This document shows, piece after piece, positions 2,400-30,433 of a DNA stretch of 64,000 nt. Where the stretch lies: NCBI GenBank assembly GCA_001778235.1, contig MFGJ01000001.1:69302-133301 (forward strand). Direction: 5' to 3'. How positions within the stretch are numbered: the stretch's first letter is position 1; each line of letters begins with the position of its first letter. The DNA is from Candidatus Falkowbacteria bacterium RIFOXYC2_FULL_36_12. GTDB lineage: Bacteria; Patescibacteriota; Patescibacteriia; UBA11705. The translations under genes were made by a program, and so were the position numbers. The notes under the pieces are model-generated. The model was not told where the DNA came from, ran no database searches, and saw only the letters and a program-made list of their open reading frames with translations.

Positions 2400-3914
2400 A
2401 TGTACTATCTATTAACTGTTATTGGACTGGCTATTGGACTTGCTCTGGGGTATGTAATTAGAAAAACTATTGCCCAAAGTAAAGCAAATTCGATTGAAGC
2501 CAAGACACAGTTGCAACTTGAAGAAGCAAAAAATAAAGAACGAGAAATATTGCTAAAGGCAAAAGATAAATCACTGCAAATTATTGAAGAAGCAAAAAAA
2601 GATGAGGTTTCTAGACGACGAGAACTAAATAATGTGCAGTCAAGGCTCGAAAAACGAGAAGAATTGTTTGACAAAAAATTGCTTGAACTTGAATCAAAAC
2701 AAACAAAAATTCAAGACAGAGCCAAGGAAGTTGAACAAATCAAGGAACAAATTAAAAAAATTAAACAAGACCAACTTAATAAACTGGAAAGAATTGCGGG
2801 GCTTGATAAAGAAAAAGCACTACAGGTATTGCTAGACAATGTTGAAAAAGAAAACGAAGAATCCTTGATGATAAGGATGAAAAAACTCCAGAACGAATCA
2901 GCAACAGAGCTAGAAAGAGAAGCAAAAAAAACTCTGGCAAATGTTATTCAAAGATGCTCTGTAAATCATTCATCTGAAATGACAACCACTACCATTGATC
3001 TACCAAGTGATGAAATGAAAGGTAGAATTATTGGTAGAGAAGGTAGAAATATCAGAGCGATTGAACAATTGACCGGGGTAGAAATCGTTGTAGATGATAC
3101 ACCTAATGTAATTACAATTTCAGGTTTTTCACCGATTCGAAGACATGTAGCAAAAAGAGCCCTGGAAAAATTGATTTTAGACGGCAGAATTCATCCGGCG
3201 AAAATTGAAAGCGCGATTGAAGAAGCGAAAAAAGAATTGGCACTTGAAATCCAAAAAGCTGGAGAAGAAGCTGCCTATGAAGTCGGAATTGCAGGACTTG
3301 ATCCAAAATTAATCCAGATTTTAGGCAGATTAAAATATAGAACCAGTTATGGACAAAATGTACTCCAGCACACGATTGAAGTAACTCACCTAGCAGCATT
3401 GCTGGCTGAACAATTAGGTGCTGATGTAAATGTTTGTCGAAAAGCTGGTCTACTTCACGATATTGGTAAGGCTGTTGATCATGAAATACAGGGAACTCAT
3501 ATTGAAATCGGAGTTGATATTTGTAAAAAATTTGGTATTCCAGAAGATGTTATCAAAGCAGGAATGCAACATCATGATGATAAACCAGAAACTCTAGAAG
3601 GAGTAATCATAAAAACCGCTGATGCAATTTCTGGAGCTCGACCTGGAGCAAGAAAAGATACTTATGAAAGATATTTGCAAAGATTGAACGAATTAGAATC
3701 AATAGCCAAAGGCTTTGAAGGGGTAGAGAAAACTTATGCGATCCAAGCTGGACGAGAAGTAAGAGTATTTGTTAATCCGACTGAAATCTCTGACTTGCAG
3801 GCTGAAAAATTGGCTCAAGCTATTGCTAAGAAAATTGAAGCTGAACTCAAGTACCCAGGTGAAATCAAAGTTGCGGTTATACGAGAAAATAGAATTATAG
3901 AATATGCGAGGTAA
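2400..3914 (+). CDS. rny: Ribonuclease Y (N-terminal TM helix, coiled coil, KH domain, HD domain)
   Basis: KH motif GRIIGREGRNIRAIEQLTGVEIVVDD; HD motif LLHDIGKAVDHE; N-terminal hydrophobic anchor. Confidence 0.9.
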   Translation: MYYLLTVIGLAIGLALGYVIRKTIAQSKANSIEAKTQLQLEEAKNKEREILLKAKDKSLQIIEEAKKDEVSRRRELNNVQSRLEKREELFDKKLLELESKQTKIQDRAKEVEQIKEQIKKIKQDQLNKLERIAGLDKEKALQVLLDNVEKENEESLMIRMKKLQNESATELEREAKKTLANVIQRCSVNHSSEMTTTTIDLPSDEMKGRIIGREGRNIRAIEQLTGVEIVVDDTPNVITISGFSPIRRHVAKRALEKLILDGRIHPAKIESAIEEAKKELALEIQKAGEEAAYEVGIAGLDPKLIQILGRLKYRTSYGQNVLQHTIEVTHLAALLAEQLGADVNVCRKAGLLHDIGKAVDHEIQGTHIEIGVDICKKFGIPEDVIKAGMQHHDDKPETLEGVIIKTADAISGARPGARKDTYERYLQRLNELESIAKGFEGVEKTYAIQAGREVRVFVNPTEISDLQAEKLAQAIAKKIEAELKYPGEIKVAVIRENRIIEYAR

Positions 3915-9538: not shown

Positions 9539-10016
9539 CACAAAACCTGCTATAAAAGGCAGACAAGAAATTTTCATTTAGGATATACCGAGCCGGAGCC
9601 TGGCATTACCTAAAACAAAAATCCCATGCTTGTCGTGTCTGCCTATCAAAACAGGTTTTATAACTAATTCTTGCGAATTAACAGTTAATAATATCATTAA
9701 ATTTTGACATTGTCAATAGAGTTTTTTTCTCTAAAACTAGACAATTTATTTTAGCTTGATTGTCTACTTGTATTATATCATTTAAATCATAACCAGCCAA
9801 ATAACAATATTTAATTTTCTATTCACACTTTATACACAACAAGACATTACTTATATGATTTTATAAGTATTTTTTATAAAGATAGTATTTTTTCTGAATT
9901 TTTAGCCTTTAGAGAAATATTTGAATTTAGACGGAAATAATACTTGATTAAATAAATGTTTATTTTTCTAATATAAAAACCAGCGAAAAGCTGGTTTTTG
10001 AAATTCTTTGAGTAGA

Positions 10017-10806: not shown

Positions 10807-11580
10807 TTACTTTTTTTTCACAACAAGTCTAAGGCGCGGGTAAACTAATTGGTGATGTTTGTCTTGTTGTTTGAGATTAATTTCCACTCGGGATTCTACC
10901 ATAATATAACCTGGCATGAAACTTGAGCTGGAAATCGTAGTTGACACATTGGACAATATATTAGCGACAATTACAGAGACATCGTTTGAAGTATAAACTT
11001 CAAATTTAAGCCTACGCTTCAATTCAAGAACTTCAGAATCGTCTCCAAACAACGGATCACTTTGTTTCAAAGCGGAAAAATTAATCGTGAGAAATTTACT
11101 CATCAAATATGATCTAACATCAATCGGAATAAAGCTAAGACTATTGCGGACAATGTAATCTTTACCTGCGAACTGGCACTCAATATTACGAAAAAATTGT
11201 AAAGCATCAAAGGCAGAATCAATTGAATATAATTTTGTCATCGGATCGAACTGATCAAGAACTAACAATCGATTGCCTGAAGACAACTCATAAACAGCAA
11301 ATAGATATTGTGTTTGCCCATTGTCAACATATTTAATACGAACAATATTGAAATTTTTCAAGAAAACTCTAAAAAAAAGAAAATATGTGAAAGCAACAAA
11401 TAAACATAAAATTGAATAAACAAATACTATGACGATATTAACTTTTGTCGCCAGAATCATAATAAGCAAAATCAGGGCGAGACCGACAACTTCCATGATT
11501 CTCGGTATTAGCAGATTAAACAAATATTTCATCTTAGCGAGATTCTCATATTTTTCAATGAACTTGGCAGTCTGGTCCAT
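10807..11580 (-). CDS. Hypothetical membrane protein
   Basis: Two or three N-terminal hydrophobic helices; no known motif. Confidence 0.45.
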   Translation of the reverse strand: MDQTAKFIEKYENLAKMKYLFNLLIPRIMEVVGLALILLIMILATKVNIVIVFVYSILCLFVAFTYFLFFRVFLKNFNIVRIKYVDNGQTQYLFAVYELSSGNRLLVLDQFDPMTKLYSIDSAFDALQFFRNIECQFAGKDYIVRNSLSFIPIDVRSYLMSKFLTINFSALKQSDPLFGDDSEVLELKRRLKFEVYTSNDVSVIVANILSNVSTTISSSSFMPGYIMVESRVEINLKQQDKHHQLVYPRLRLVVKKK

Positions 11581-11730
11581 GGCGCCTCCTGTTTCAGGGT
11601 AAAAATAACCTTATAACAATCATTTAAGTATGTCAAACTAAATTTGAGCGCTCCAAGCATTTGTCATCTTTTTCTGACATTGTTTTGTGGCTAATTTTAG
11701 CAGAAAAGAACAAGGCTCCGTCAGCACCTA

Positions 11731-11759
11731 TTGACATTTATTCAAATTTATGATATAAT
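11731..11759 (+). promoter_or_regulatory. Consensus sigma70-type promoter (TTGACA-17-TATAAT)
   Basis: ttgaca at 11731-11736, an exactly 17-nt spacer, tataat at 11754-11759. Confidence 0.6.
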
Positions 11760-11766
11760 GCTTAGT

Positions 11767-12395
11767 TAAATGATCAATACAACTTAGCATAGTCAGTAGC
11801 ATGATGTAGAGGAGAGAGCTCTATTTACTCGCTTTATCGACTCGTCGATTACGCAAGTTTATAGTTATAAACACTGCCTTACCAAGGTATTAAGTTATAT
11901 CCAAGACCTTAATTAAGGCAAAAAACTTCTTCTATGTCATTGTACTGATTATATACATTCTCCAAATATTAACACTATTGTGATGTGGAGGAGAGAGATT
12001 CGTTAGCTAAATTTGGTTTCAACACCGTATTTGGCAATGAATTAAATACTTCCATAGTTTTGCGAGGCTTTAAAATTTCTTTTATTGGCCAGATACAAAA
12101 CTATATTATTTTCCTCTACCTCACAATATTGTTAAGTTCATCAAAATATACGGTAGTAGAGATGTGGGGGGGAGATACGGGGATATTATTTATTTTAATT
12201 GATCCCACGAGACTCCTTCTCATCTGTGCTACTGTTATTTTTTCTTGAAATGGGCAGGCAAGCTTCTCTCTCCTCTATTTTCTAGTTCTTTTACTAGAGA
12301 ATAACTTGTCTGCTCATTTGAGGGAGAAATCCCTTTTACAAAAGGAGCATTCCCGTGTGGAATCGCTTCTTTTGCTTTTAAAGGGATTTTTTATT
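11767..12395 (+). ncRNA. Candidate large structured non-coding RNA of ~630 nt. Its class is unknown; it is not tmRNA and does not look like RNase P RNA by eye.
   Basis: No credible ORF across ~940 bp. A consensus promoter lies upstream and a hairpin plus T-run terminator sits at ~12340-12395. A long-range complement pairs gaggagagag (~11808) with ctctctcctc (~12266), and gatgtggaggagagag-like motifs recur. Confidence 0.4.
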
Positions 12396-12524
12396 TAGAC
12401 AATAAAGACATTTGCTGTGATTAATCTTGCCAATTTCTTCATTTATGTTCAATTTTATGATAAAATATTAGTACATTAAATAATAACCTAACTCATAGAT
12501 TAAGCCTATTGAGTATTTATTAAT

Positions 12525-14861
12525 ATGGCGAAACGAGGAAGACCCAGAAAAAATAAAGTCCAAGTCGAAGAAGAATATTATTCACTTAGCCCTGAAACAA
12601 AAAAAGCAATTTTTATCGTTGTTTTATTTGCCCTTGCAGTTATTAGCAGTTTAAGCTTTTTAGACCTTGCGGGTTCAGCCGGACAGCTTATAAGCATGGC
12701 ACTAGCTATTGCTTTTGGACTGACAAAATATTTATTCCCGATTATTTTAATTTGTTTGGCGTATGTTCTAACCCAACCGAGCAAATATGCACCTACATGG
12801 ATTAATTATCTTGGTATACTAATCTTTATACTAAGTTTTAATGGATTAATTCATTTAATTGTTACTAGAAATATTTTGGATACAGCAACTGATTATGCTT
12901 TTGCCGGACTGGGTGGAGGACTATCAGGGTTGGCCTTGAGCTACCCATTAAATCAAGGATTAGGCTTCTGGGCGAGCGTTGTACTGCTACTGGCCTTTAC
13001 CATTATTTCAATTTTATTAATATTTAATACAACCCTTGAAACACTATTAGACCGAACAAAACTTTCTAATATCGGGAGCTTTGTGTCAAATCCGCTAAAA
13101 CGAAATTCCGGAGATGATGATGATTTTGATGAAGAAGATGATGACGACGATGAAGAAGAAAGTGAAACAAATGAAACTGAAGAGATTGAGCTTGAAGAAG
13201 ATGAAAACGAAGGTCTTGAAACGATTGGACAACCAATTAAAACAAGTGGAATATTTAAAAAAACACCAACTGCAGTTGAAAATAAATTTGCTGAAAGTAA
13301 ATTTAGGAATCTGCAATATGATTTGCCACTGGGCTTACTTAATGGTAAATCAACAAAGCCAAAAAGTGGTGATGTAAATCTGGCAATGGAAAGAATTGAA
13401 AGTACTTTGCATAATTTTGGTATAGATATAGAAATGGGAGAGGTTAATGTCGGACCAACAGTTACCCAGTATTCATTTAAACCAGCTGAAGGAATTAAAC
13501 TATCTAGGATAACAACCTTAAACAATGATCTTGCGCTCGCTCTTGCAGCTCACCCAATCAGAATTGAAGCTCCAATCCCTGGAAAATCCCTTGTCGGAAT
13601 AGAAGTTCCAAATCACCAGCCCGCGCTGGTACCACTTCGACCAATTATTGACAATAAAGATTTCCAAGAACAAAAATCAAAACTTTCACTAGGTCTAGGC
13701 AAAGATGTAAGCGGAAAAAATTGGCATTGTGATTTAGGGAAAATGCCACATTTACTAGTTGCAGGAGCCACTGGTTCAGGTAAAAGTGTTTGCTTGAATA
13801 CTATAATTTTAAGTTTGGTATATCAAAATAGTCCTGAAACATTGAGATTAATATTAGTTGACCCAAAAAGAGTTGAGTTTACTGTATATAATGGGATTCC
13901 ACATTTATTAACACCGGTGATCACTGATGTCACAAAAACAATCAATGCTTTGCGCTGGGCAATACATGAAATGGATCAAAGATTTGATATTTTGTCCAAA
14001 GCAGGAAAAAGAAACATTGAAAGTTATAATGAACATAGTCAAGTGAAAATGCCCTACATTGTCATTGTGATTGATGAACTGGCTGATCTAATGACTGCGG
14101 CATCAGCAGAAGTTGAAGGAAGTATAATCAGACTAACTCAAATGGCACGAGCTATTGGTATTCATTTGGTAGTAGCGACCCAAAGACCATCGGTTGATAT
14201 TATTACTGGCTTGATTAAAGCTAATATACCAGGACGAATTGCTTTTTCTGTTGCCTCATCAATGGATTCAAGAACTATTCTTGATTCAATTGGTGCTGAA
14301 AAATTAATTGGAAAAGGCGATATGTTATTCCAAACGGCTGAACTATCAAAACCAAGACGATTACAAGGGGCATTTGTAAGTGACAGAGAAATAAAAAATG
14401 TGGTAAACTTCCTAAAGCAACTGGCTGGAGAACCTGAATATGATGAATCAATCGTAGAAAAACAAAGTAATAAATCAAGTTTTGATTTTGGTGGTGATGA
14501 AGCTGATGATGAATTGTTTGATGAAGCAAAGAGCGTTGTACTTCAAGCCGGGAAAGCCTCTGCCTCACTGCTTCAAAGACGATTGAGAATCGGATATGCC
14601 AGAGCTGCCAGACTGATTGATATTTTGGAAGAAAAAGGCATTGTCGGCGCAGCTGATGGAGCTAGGCCAAGACAAATCCTAATGTCAGAAGAAGATTTTG
14701 ATCAACCAACTCCATCTGTTTTTCGTGGAAGAGACCAAAAACAAGATGATAAAATCAATATCGCAGATGATGAGACTGATTTAGATGAAGAAAAAGATGA
14801 TGATGAAGATAATGAGATAAATCAACTTGACTATACAGATGACGAGGACAAAAACCAATAA
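12525..14861 (+). CDS. ftsK: DNA translocase FtsK/SpoIIIE
   Basis: N-terminal TM helices, acidic linker, Walker A GATGSGKSVCLN, C-terminal gamma winged-helix (LLQRRLRIGYARAARLIDILEEKGIVG). Confidence 0.9.
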   Translation: MAKRGRPRKNKVQVEEEYYSLSPETKKAIFIVVLFALAVISSLSFLDLAGSAGQLISMALAIAFGLTKYLFPIILICLAYVLTQPSKYAPTWINYLGILIFILSFNGLIHLIVTRNILDTATDYAFAGLGGGLSGLALSYPLNQGLGFWASVVLLLAFTIISILLIFNTTLETLLDRTKLSNIGSFVSNPLKRNSGDDDDFDEEDDDDDEEESETNETEEIELEEDENEGLETIGQPIKTSGIFKKTPTAVENKFAESKFRNLQYDLPLGLLNGKSTKPKSGDVNLAMERIESTLHNFGIDIEMGEVNVGPTVTQYSFKPAEGIKLSRITTLNNDLALALAAHPIRIEAPIPGKSLVGIEVPNHQPALVPLRPIIDNKDFQEQKSKLSLGLGKDVSGKNWHCDLGKMPHLLVAGATGSGKSVCLNTIILSLVYQNSPETLRLILVDPKRVEFTVYNGIPHLLTPVITDVTKTINALRWAIHEMDQRFDILSKAGKRNIESYNEHSQVKMPYIVIVIDELADLMTAASAEVEGSIIRLTQMARAIGIHLVVATQRPSVDIITGLIKANIPGRIAFSVASSMDSRTILDSIGAEKLIGKGDMLFQTAELSKPRRLQGAFVSDREIKNVVNFLKQLAGEPEYDESIVEKQSNKSSFDFGGDEADDELFDEAKSVVLQAGKASASLLQRRLRIGYARAARLIDILEEKGIVGAADGARPRQILMSEEDFDQPTPSVFRGRDQKQDDKINIADDETDLDEEKDDDEDNEINQLDYTDDEDKNQ

Positions 14862-27779: not shown

Positions 27780-29429
<1,650 letters not shown>

Positions 29430-29499: not shown

Positions 29500-29640
29500 A
29501 AAAAAACACTCCAGCGAATAGCTGGTGTGTGCGTTTAGAGGAGAGGTTGTTGAAAGTAGTGGCTAGCAATGAAATTTAAATGTAAGTTGTTGATTTGTTA
29601 AAACAAGTTTTTTTTAGAATAAGTGATTGATTACGCTTCG
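29500..29640 (+). repeat. Repeat module A, copy 1. It ends in a hairpin plus T-run. A second copy lies at 63760..63903.
   Basis: cgaatagctggtgtgtgcgtttagagg...gtagtggctagcaatg...gtaagttgttgat...tttttttagaataagtgattgatt is ~80% identical to 63764-63903. Confidence 0.7.
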
Positions 29641-29815
29641 CGTCTTACTTTTTGGTGGCAAAAAGTAAGCAAAAACCACTGGGTGAACAAATGCGAATTG
29701 TTTTTGTCAAGTTCGTGGTTTTGATGACGCGCTTGTTCACCCAGACCCGATGCTTGGCATGTTTGTGGGGTTGAATGTATAAAGTAAGTTATCATTTTGC
29801 TATAGCAGGTTTTTT
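29620..29815 (+). ncRNA. Repeat unit 1 of a tandem structured-RNA-like family. It has a 5' module, a variable stem, a 3' module and a terminator.
   Basis: 5' aagtgattgattacgcttcgcg + perfect hairpin cttactttttggtggcaaaaagtaag + caaaaaccactggg; variable stem gggtgaacaa/ttgttcaccc; 3' cccagacccgatgcttggcatgtttgtggggttgaa; terminator tgctatagca + T-run. Confidence 0.45.
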
Positions 29816-29820
29816 GAAAA

Positions 29821-30020
29821 AAGTGATTGATTGCGCTTTGCGCCTTACTTTTTGATGGCAAAAAGTAAGCAAAAACCACTGGGGGCTTTAATTGCTACTT
29901 ATGAAAATTATTTTGTGTTTTAAACACGGCAAGAAAGCCCCCAGACCCGATGCTTACCGTGTTCGTGGGGTTGAATAATAAAGTATGTGATTGGTATTGC
30001 TAAAGCAAGTTTTTTTGACA
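29821..30020 (+). ncRNA. Repeat unit 2 of the same family. Its variable stem (gggggcttt/aaagccccc) is compensatory to unit 1.
   Basis: Same 5' and 3' modules as unit 1; only the middle differs, with stem pairing preserved; terminator ttgctaaagcaa + T-run. Confidence 0.45.
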
Positions 30021-30107
30021 CCCTGCCTGAAAGCCTTAGTCTGTCTCGACTTCACGATGAAGACGGGCAAGATGCGTTAAATGTTATTGTTGTTTATATA
30101 TTTAAAT

Positions 30108-30318
30108 TTGTCACTCTGAACTTGTTTCAGAGTATAAAGGGATAGCTTGATTATACCTTGATTATACCCTGAAATCCATCTTCGTTAAAACTTCGATGGA
30201 CAAGTAAATTCAGAGCCTGCCCTGAATTAATTTCAGGGGTGACAAGTGAGAGTGTTGGTAGCGCGCATTACGCCCCCAGATTTGCCTTCATCAAGATTAC
30301 GGCAGGCAAGACCCGAGG
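30108..30318 (+). repeat. Composite of the hairpin ccctgaa-N-ttcaggg (inverted and direct copies) plus a ~100-nt conserved element, the long-form 3' module. It is homologous to 58703..58825.
   Basis: ggtgacaagtgagagtgttggtagcgcgcattacgcccccagatttgccttcatcaagattacggcaggcaagacccgaggctggtcatgttcgtggggttt matches 58724-58825 with few substitutions. Confidence 0.65.
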
Positions 30319-30433
30319 CTGGTCATGTTCGTGGGGTTTAATATTACTGAAGTTTTATTTTATTTTTGACAATCTTGCGTATATTGTGTAAGCTGAAAAA
30401 TGATTTTGTCCTTTTCACCAGACCGGAGGGAAA

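Follow-up and report, generated by a model that had tools for sequence, protein, structure and literature searches.

Several described classes of bacterial RNA resemble, in one respect or another, the element considered here. In protein-sequestering RNAs such as CsrB and RsmZ, the capacity is tuned by the number of modules. Homo-oligomeric assemblies have been reported for the large ornate RNAs ROOL, GOLLD and OLE, and the masking of ribosome-binding sites by C/U-rich seed loops is established in small RNAs of Gram-positive bacteria (RsaE/RoxS, RNAIII). Few large structured RNAs are known from bacteria, and those characterised so far have each brought new biology to light. The present analysis deals with a predicted large RNA located directly upstream of ftsK in a stretch of 64,000 nucleotides (hereafter the window) from contig MFGJ01000001.1 of Candidatus Falkowbacteria bacterium RIFOXYC2_FULL_36_12. 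This organism belongs to the Patescibacteria (Candidate Phyla Radiation, CPR), the genomes of which are about 1 Mb in size, and its lineage of ultra-small bacteria is probably symbiotic.

Judged by its sequence, the segment ~11765-12397 (+ strand) is an independently transcribed, non-coding and highly structured RNA of about 615-633 nt. A first-pass annotation had proposed a large structured RNA with its own promoter and terminator, and the fold statistics, the covarying stems and the presence of both signals agree with this proposal. The analysis adds that the RNA is modular, that every hairpin module has a repeated motif at the upper end of its closing stem, and that the number of modules of one type (A) varies from 0 to 3 between genomes.

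Transcription signals and coding potential of the locus

The window is densely coded and contains few gaps free of open reading frames (ORFs). One of them, 944 nt long (11581-12524), separates a minus-strand ORF of 257 aa (10807-11580) from ftsK (12525-14861), whose product possesses all four Pfam FtsK domains. The RNA region, at 0.31-0.39 G+C, is not distinct in composition from the neighbouring DNA. As the first-pass annotation had stated, the ~940 bp before ftsK hold no credible ORF: the largest, of 87 aa with a GTG start (11985-12248), has no Pfam match, and no counterpart was found in the homologous loci by tblastn (best match 20 residues, E = 0.25). The conserved small ORF that was to be looked for thus did not appear in either search. 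This frame spans modules A2 and B, described below, whose substitutions are of the RNA type. The existence of the frame is the argument for a decayed or small protein gene, a reading that can hardly be credited in view of the missing Pfam match, the missing conservation and the RNA-type substitutions across both modules.

The same RNA was found 5′ of ftsK and co-oriented with it in 16 of 16 Falkowbacteria-like loci, the window included, with FtsK identities of 54-69% (numbers such as L001 below denote the loci compared with the window). The sigma-70-type promoter of the window (11731-11759, + strand) comprises the -35 hexamer TTGACA (11731-11736), a 17-nt spacer and the -10 hexamer TATAAT (11754-11759). 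The ideal promoter claimed at first pass is therefore real as a sequence, with 12 of 12 consensus positions matched, and the spacer additionally carries an extended -10 TG (11751-11752). Perfect TTGACA-N17-TATAAT sites occur four times in the window, as against 0.04 expected, and are therefore regarded as real signals in this genome. The predicted transcription start lies at ~11764-11767. At the equivalent position, a perfect TTGACA followed after 16-18 nt by TAnAAT was found in 11 of the first 13 loci and in L160; in L156, L157 and L159 the -10 hexamer of the RNA promoter departs from the consensus at one position. It is probable that the RNA is abundant.

The terminator (T, 12340-12397, + strand) was recognised by RNAfold and as inverted repeat I11. 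It consists of a hairpin (12340-12373) with the loop CCCGUGUGG and a U-run (12370-12379), the hairpin being followed by UUUUGCUUUU. A further, optional helix (12327-12336/12380-12389) encloses this hairpin; after it comes UUUUUUAUUU, with a second U-run at 12388-12397. The hairpin and T-run noted earlier at ~12340-12395 were thus recovered, though a consensus terminator scan of the region reported no terminator. A hairpin with a U-run ends the RNA in every homologous sequence inspected, and the loop CCGUGUGR recurs in L001, L149, L151, L152, L155, L159 and L160.

Between T and ftsK lies a putative promoter of ftsK itself, outside the RNA (12457-12484, + strand), with the extended -10 box TGATAAAAT at 12458-12466 and a weak match to the consensus. 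It bounds the RNA gene on the 3′ side, the ATG of ftsK being at 12525. Of the 15 loci whose sequence extends to ftsK (that of L141 stops short of it), 14 have a TGnTAAAAT box between T and this gene; L158 has the variant TGATAAAAA in its place. The box reads ATGCTAAAAT or TGATAAAAT, is accompanied by a poor -35 element and lies 45-110 nt 5′ of the start codon in these 14 loci, where it would act as the ftsK promoter.

Modular fold, covariation and distribution

The minimum free energy (MFE) of the + strand of 11765-12400 is -219 kcal/mol, compared with -136 ± 4.7 kcal/mol in dinucleotide shuffles (z = -17.6). The value for the - strand is -170 kcal/mol (z = -6.2), an asymmetry to be expected if a transcript of the + strand contains G-U pairs. 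When 13 loci were folded independently, the MFE structures showed the same chain of domains: A hairpins, B, C, D and T. The A modules, 0-3 per RNA, are hairpins of 151-172 nt with a three-way junction. A single B module of 87-104 nt was found in all 16 loci, and the total length of the RNA ranges from about 215 to about 840 nt.

In the window, module A1 (11789-11952, + strand) is a 164-nt hairpin. It has a closing stem and two inner arms, and its purine motif is GAUGUAGAGGAGAGAG (11803-11818). The hairpin of module A2 (11969-12135, + strand; 167 nt) has the purine motif GAUGUGGAGGAGAGAG (11982-11997); inverted repeat I1, 24 nt long (11969-11992/12112-12135, 88% complementary), forms the closing stem of this module, and the apical arm has the form GGC-[AU-rich 19-nt loop]-GCC at 12066. 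Both A modules were delineated by MFE folding and covariation, and module B (12143-12241, + strand; 99 nt) by MFE folding and RNAalifold. The motif of B is GAUGUGGGGGGGAGA (12161-12175) and its apical arm GGG-[22-nt AU-rich loop]-CCC. Throughout the family, the closing stem of a module comprises 16-25 bp with an outer part unconstrained in sequence, and an inner part in which GAUGURGAGG is paired with CCUCYRCYUCAY. A conserved U in this inner stem is left unpaired by RNAfold (opposite C in A2, opposite U in B of L001), and the AGAGAG purines run from the stem into the internal loop. The apical arm is formed by G/C pairs closing an AU-rich, G-poor loop of 15-25 nt, which often ends in AUUG. The A modules carry one arm more than B, hence their three-way junction. 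The linkers between modules are short (1-17 nt).

Domain C (12244-12323, + strand) was defined by a covariance model, R1, and by covariation. Its helix P1 pairs CUUGAAAUGGGCAGGCAAG with CUUGUCUGCUCAUUUGAGG; the family form is GAGURGRCAAG/CUUGUCURCUC with an outer extension, enclosing a 5′-side loop of 13-15 nt, (C)UUCUCUCUCCUCU. In the window this internal loop (C-loop, 12263-12277, + strand) reads CUUCUCUCUCCUCUA, a single-stranded pyrimidine tract complementary to the purine motifs of the modules. The nested hairpin P2 (12277-12302) has the pyrimidine loop UUCUUUU (12286-12292), and in most loci the P2 loop is GUUCUUUU. Hairpin D (12322-12333, + strand), GGGA-GAAA-UCCC, was read from the sequence; it shares 2 nt with the 3′ end of P1. 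Its equivalents in relatives differ in sequence, for example GAGGAAG-GAAA-CUUCCUC and GGGAGGC-CCCUCC-GCCUCCC.

At the C/D junction, the GAGG/GGGA strand (12315-12333 in the window, 1247-1268 in L141, 2703-2730 in L156) has two alternative partners, the 5′ end of P1 (CUUC/UUCC) and the 3′ strand of D (CCUC/UCCC). It is possible that the junction is a three-strand switch.

A modules are absent from L004, L143 and L155. One is present in L141, L152, L153 and L156-L160, two in the window and L151, and three in L001, L002 and L149. The units of L001 and L149 correspond one to one, GAGGAGGGAG, for example, being confined to the third A unit of each, which points to old duplications kept by selection.

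The helices are maintained by compensatory substitutions. In domain C (14 loci aligned to R1), 92.7% of the cells are paired, compared with 40-52% in controls with slid partners; compensatory changes occur at 18 of 27 pairs, with a score of 0.547 against 0.09-0.15, equalled by none of 500 shuffles. The closing stem of the A modules (19 units) behaves in the same way: 93.8% of the cells are paired against 35-55% in slid controls, 15 of 23 pairs show compensatory changes, and the score of 0.438 (controls 0.06-0.10) was again equalled in 0 of 500 shuffles. For A the closing stems were assessed, the inner arms being poorly aligned by MAFFT. In the base stem of B (RNAalifold, 14 loci; columns 27-38/97-108), up to 8 of 14 sequences are changed on both sides at one pair, and covariation in T and D was judged by eye. 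The alignments were partly derived from the structures under test and the sequences are related, so these statistics overstate independence; the slid-partner controls and the many pair types per column leave little doubt that the helices are maintained. R1 gave 88 bits in the window, 57-96 bits in the 15 further loci and 19-34 bits on the reverse strand.

The range of the family was assessed from FtsK identity in 16 loci, several of which are closely related. The best genome matches of the window FtsK, one of them in a Candidatus Falkowbacteria metagenome-assembled genome, have 60-65% identity and place the window in Falkowbacteria-like Patescibacteria. The three closest genomes contain an ORF-free gap of 0.5-1.3 kb before ftsK with the same promoter, one to four copies of the purine motif and a single pyrimidine motif. 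A pattern scan of JGI metagenomes gave 10 matches among those listed, of which three were genuine loci; the exact pattern is too strict for this RNA family. Tracing FtsK homologues (54-69% identity) to their contigs led to ten more loci. The RNA was present at all 13 examined loci with an FtsK 57-69% identical to that of the window and in L160 (54%), L141 and L143 having entered the set through the DNA-pattern scan. The region is thus conserved in relatives, with RNA-type compensatory substitutions, as the comparison suggested at first pass was to establish. Beside ftsK of L003 and L005-L013 (FtsK identity 43-50%) and of L161 (Komeilibacteria, 54%) there is neither an ORF-free gap nor a match to R1; the family may be absent from these genomes or located elsewhere in them. 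In IMG/VR, a loose C-domain pattern gave 58 matches among those listed, all of them one unrelated gut-phage coding sequence or chance, and the 20 matches listed for the module motif were at about chance level, none with a domain C.

The gene order is usually clpP (- strand), RNA (+ strand), ftsK, a gene with an HTH_25 domain and recA. In L159, clpP is replaced by other genes and the RNA still lies directly 5′ of ftsK. In L155 (1516-2508) and L151 (898-2188), clpP is separated from the RNA promoter by about 1 kb or more of extra ORF-poor DNA, which in L151 includes one called gene of 151 aa with no Pfam match. Public annotation lays spurious or over-extended ORFs over the RNA. In L160, an ORF of 76 aa (3073-3303, - strand) is called antisense across domains C, D and T. 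In L152 (3001-3130, + strand), the ftsK call starts at a GTG within the RNA terminator; the conserved FtsK N-terminus begins at the ATG at 3131, 3′ of the TGATAAAAT box.

A non-coding gene of 0.2-0.85 kb in a compact genome argues for an important function, because its promoter is perfect, its single syntenic position is kept down to 54% FtsK identity and its helices are maintained by compensatory changes.

The purine motif, its complement and possible function

The repeated motifs mentioned in the first-pass annotation proved to be GATGTGGAGGAGAGA-like sequences at 11803, 11982 and 12161, spaced by 179 and 179 nt. The spacing in relatives is 162-210 nt, so the exact repeat is a coincidence of this genome. 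The GATGTRGAGGAGAGA-like purine motif has one reverse complement in the RNA region, CTCTCTCCTCTA at 12266-12277. The long-range complementarity reported around ~11808 and ~12266 was recovered as inverted repeat I6, in which TAGAGGAGAGAG (11807-11818) pairs with this sequence at 12 of 12 positions. The most conserved elements of the family are GAGGAGAGAG, found in every module, and CUCUCUCCUC, found in the single C-loop.

In every one of the 16 loci, a run of at least 10-15 consecutive pairs is possible between the C-loop and one or more modules, at -20 to -25 kcal/mol; with the individual modules of the window, the duplex energies are -18 to -25 kcal/mol. The predicted unpaired probability of the C-loop is 0.84 in the window, 0.67-0.85 in five of six loci tested and 0.46 in L004, and the AGAGAG loop is predicted to be partly unpaired. 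Coordinated changes on both sides were observed: GAGAGAA of A1 opposite UUCUCUC in L158, shortening on the purine and pyrimidine sides in L155, and CAGAGG/CCUCUG in L004 and L143 compared with UAGAGG/CCUCUA in the window. In L156-L160, an additional purine stretch (GGAGGGA or AGAGAGA) stands just 5′ of the C-loop, which suggests that pairing of the C-loop matters.

The purine motif is absent from the remainder of the window, and the flanking DNA of 15 genomes (185 kb in total) holds no more near-matches to GAGGAGAGAG outside the RNA than chance predicts (4 found, 4.1 expected). The motif is not enriched elsewhere, and its complement therefore most plausibly serves the RNA itself. These counts also bear on a DNA-level element, that is, protein-binding iterons or tandem insertions similar to miniature inverted-repeat transposable elements (MITEs) with terminal inverted repeats. 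The recurrence of a 15-nt motif at a spacing of 179 nt, and units with terminal inverted repeats in variable copy number, would be expected of such an element. It is largely refuted, and extremely improbable, given the scarcity of the motif elsewhere, the much better folding of the + strand, the strand specificity of R1, the compensatory changes that preserve helices, the conserved promoter and terminator, and units that are orthologous between genomes, not near-identical copies.

We tentatively favour, with a probability of about 0.4, the reading that the RNA acts in trans as a modular scaffold or decoy, with docking between its purine and pyrimidine loops. The repeated modules would be equivalent binding sites for one abundant protein or protein complex, and duplication or loss of modules would tune the binding capacity. 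Variation of module number with retention of motif and geometry is typical of RNAs with several equivalent partner sites. Watson-Crick pairing would attach the C-loop to the purine internal loop exposed in one module, in a loop-loop or pseudoknot contact within or between molecules, with the effect either of fixing the overall architecture or of occluding one of the sites. The natural variants with 0, 1, 2 and 3 A modules constitute a ready dose series, and the minimal version of 215 nt (L004) is suited to structural work.

Several observations weigh against such a scaffold or decoy. No partner protein is encoded at a conserved position beside the RNA. The GGA of the motif lies at stem junctions, not in apical loops, unlike in CsrA-type sponges, and -10-like UAUAAU sequences in the AU-rich loops (15 of 21 loops) are about as frequent as in shuffles (13.4 ± 2.1); the idea of a sigma-factor decoy with loops mimicking -10 promoter elements was therefore rejected. 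The long-range covariation comes from three lineages only, both motifs being near-invariant, and the CCGC change in the C-loop of L001 is uncompensated. As a nested helix, the contact between purine motif and C-loop would cost +10 to +32 kcal/mol over the MFE because covarying local stems would break; an alternative nested secondary structure of this kind was rejected, and the contact, if formed, would be tertiary (loop-loop or pseudoknot) or intermolecular. Finally, the strict linkage to ftsK (16 of 16 loci) could instead point to a role in cis.

A cis-acting leader of ftsK, with attenuator-like or riboswitch-like control of read-through of T, would account for this linkage and orientation, which persist in L159 where clpP is replaced, and could use the two alternative partners of the GAGG strand at the C/D junction. 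The TGnTAAAAT box (or its close variant in L158) intervenes between T and ftsK, no Rfam cis-regulatory family matches, and we know of no riboswitch leaders of 200-850 nt with duplicated modules. It is highly improbable that the RNA is such a leader.

The pyrimidine loops of domain C (CUUCUCUCUCCUCU and GUUCUUUU) might alternatively be the seed of a base-pairing regulator directed at purine-rich, Shine-Dalgarno (SD)-like sites in mRNAs or other RNAs, in which case the modules, through their purine motifs, would provide built-in decoys or auto-inhibitors. The C-loop, predicted to be ~0.8 unpaired, is the best-conserved single-stranded element, and it holds CUCC/CCUC, complementary to GGAG/GAGG. 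SD-like sequences precede only 7 of 45 window genes, no complement of the C-loop of at least 8 nt stands at any start codon in the window, matches outside the RNA are at chance, and the conservation and duplication of whole 165-nt modules would be left unexplained. We regard regulation by base pairing as doubtful.

If the purine and pyrimidine loops paired between molecules, with n+1 donors and one acceptor each, oligomers or networks could arise and the RNA could form a particle without protein. Several purine sites and one complementary loop per molecule, a contact disfavoured as an intramolecular nested helix, the large size, the long rigid helices and a very strong predicted promoter fit this picture. 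The minimal members L004, L143 and L155 have only one donor and one acceptor, and no similarity to the OLE, GOLLD or ROOL families was found; an RNA-only particle is considered quite unlikely.

The short linkers invite yet another explanation, a polycistronic precursor that would be cut between units into A hairpin RNAs of ~165 nt, B hairpin RNAs of ~90 nt and a C-D-T RNA, GAUGURGAGG being the processing or recognition site. The units are tightly conserved in size and the linkers measure only 1-17 nt, each unit closes itself with 16-25 bp, and the conserved motif has a fixed place in each. Single-unit members exist, and the complementary C-loop suggests that the parts act together, which makes a precursor distinctly unlikely.

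A broader conjecture, itself unlikely, is that of a lineage-specific housekeeping RNA machine, in which each module would capture a core complex of the cell (RNA polymerase, for example, or ribosomal subunits, or else a global RNA-binding protein) and the complementary loop would serve switching or assembly into higher-order, possibly RNA-only, particles. If true, the RNA would take the place of regulators of the 6S or CsrB type and would represent a new class, either of global regulators or of architectural RNAs.

A second unannotated small RNA appears to be encoded beyond clpP (window 9540-9714, - strand; RNA ~9679→9540), with the promoter hexamers TTGACA (9714-9709) and TATTAT (9691-9686). 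It was also found in L001 (~2245→2105, - strand), L004, L143, L151, L153, L156, L157, L158 and L160. It is predicted to be a rod-like hairpin of ~120-140 nt ending in a U-run. The stretches GCAGACACGACAAGCAUGGGAUUUUU and AAAAAUUUCUUGUCUG are nearly invariant, and an internal loop of 10 nt, CGACAAGCAU, is invariant. Of the 50 pairs given by RNAalifold, 17 show compensatory changes; no Rfam family matched. The small RNA has CAGACA..CAAG/CUUGUCUG in common with P1 of the large RNA and a weak match to R1 (21-22 bits); it could be part of the same system.

Another ORF-poor kilobase (29610-30342, + strand) lies downstream of groEL (27792-29429) and contains two modules of ~200 nt and a partial third. 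The 74-nt heads of the modules (29610-29683 and 29810-29883) are 91% identical, the middle is variable, and a conserved 37-nt tail, CCCAGACCCGATGCTTGGCATGTTTGTGGGGTTGAAT, occurs at 29740, 29940 and 30306. For the fold of one module z is -3.2, and no Rfam family matches at the gathering score. As for translation signals, the above count of SD-like sequences refers to the 20 nt before the start in window ORFs of at least 150 aa. Many starts in the window lie closely 3′ of a TATAAT-like box, which suggests short leaders or leaderless mRNAs.

Comparison with described RNA families

At the gathering score, a comparison of the whole window with Rfam 15 found three tRNAs, all elsewhere, and no family in the RNA region; the models compared include OLE, GOLLD, ROOL, raiA, HEARO, 6S, tmRNA, RNase P, SRP and riboswitches. 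With a threshold of E ≤ 10, the best match of 11500-12600 had 23 bits (E = 0.13), among models of plant and animal miRNA-precursor hairpins. The homologous loci gave no match at the gathering score and no recurrent weak match, and ARAGORN found 0 tRNA or tmRNA genes in 11400-12700. The opinion given at first pass that the RNA is not OLE, GOLLD, ROOL, tmRNA or RNase P RNA is in agreement with these results, as is the outcome of the Rfam search proposed there. Three further candidates were rejected. The likeness of UGAUGAG to a K-turn or hammerhead, seen by eye, concerns residues paired in the closing stem, and no Rfam ribozyme matches. A 6S-like decoy of RNA polymerase has no model match and a different shape, and -10-like hexamers are not enriched. 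For a mimic of the SD or anti-SD sequence, complementarity to a canonical 16S tail is expected over the length of GGAGG/CCUCC only, and this reading is weak because the genome rarely uses SD sequences.

The CsrB/CsrC, RsmX/Y/Z and CrcZ RNAs are similar in being stand-alone, strongly expressed RNAs with an intrinsic terminator (features predicted here) and in consisting of repeated hairpin units that share a GGA-containing purine motif, their number depending on the species. Compared with CsrB and RsmZ, the units here are hairpins of 90-170 nt, with a three-way junction in A, instead of stem-loops of ~20 nt. GGA occurs once per module, within GAGGAGAGAG at the junction of stem and internal loop, whereas theirs is in apical loops. 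The unique 3′ domain with an exact complement of the motif is additional, and there is no Rfam match.

With 6S RNA (RF00013) and its relatives the family shares a syntenic locus and the character of a presumably abundant housekeeping RNA, and its A modules are 6S-sized (150-170 nt) and irregular, with large AU-rich loops. However, 6S RNA is a rod of ~180 nt with a central bubble, whereas tandem three-way-junction hairpins and a 3′ domain were found here; no 6S model matched even at E ≤ 10, and the minimal members have no A modules. OLE, GOLLD, ROOL and raiA RNAs are comparable in size class (0.2-0.85 kb), dense conserved structure, narrow range, non-coding nature and possession of their own promoter and terminator. 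No similarity in sequence or structure to them was detected. The present RNA is built from repeated modules in variable number, not as one multi-junction fold, and belongs to a core syntenic locus of Patescibacteria, not to phage or mobile DNA, none having been found among the IMG/VR matches listed.

The unpaired, conserved pyrimidine tract CUCUCUCCUC, complementary to purines of the GGAGG type, recalls RsaE/RoxS and RNAIII of S. aureus. Here, in contrast, the best complementary sites are inside the RNA itself, external sites being at chance level, and the host seldom uses SD sequences.

A short motif at a regular distance and a terminator-ended transcript 5′ of a protein gene are reminiscent of CRISPR, ToxI and TIGR arrays (TIGR-Tas: PMC12045711). 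Tandem Repeats Finder detected no tandem array in the RNA region, and CRISPR-, TIGR- and ToxI-like readings were therefore dropped. Unlike in CRISPR and TIGR arrays, there are no near-identical repeats, only the 15-nt motif being common, and the "spacers" are conserved between species and base-paired. The repeats of ToxI are near-identical and ~34-36 nt long, whereas the units here are divergent and of 90-170 nt. The genes nearby are clpP, ftsK, the HTH_25 gene and recA, with no cas, tas or toxin gene adjacent to the RNA. Riboswitches and attenuation leaders have no promoter before the ORF, whereas the TGnTAAAAT box intervenes before ftsK. MITEs and repetitive extragenic palindromic (REP) elements would be expected to recur, unlike the motif in the rest of the 64-kb window and in the 185 kb of related DNA.

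Full-text searches of the literature covered found no such RNA described for CPR/Patescibacteria. Since the defining features tested for these groups were lacking and no description was found, the element is treated as a new RNA family, the clpP-ftsK modular RNA. Two features can delimit the family: a P1 of the form GAGURGRCAAG/CUUGUCURCUC that surrounds the loop UCUCUCCUC and P2, and, 5′ of it, one or more modules with GAGGAGAGA atop the closing stem. The window has three such modules in addition to a domain C scoring 88 bits with R1, and its layout is shared by 15 other loci. It seems appropriate to treat the architecture as unmatched by a described one, while the mode of action may be of a known general type, that of a scaffold, a sponge or an antisense RNA.

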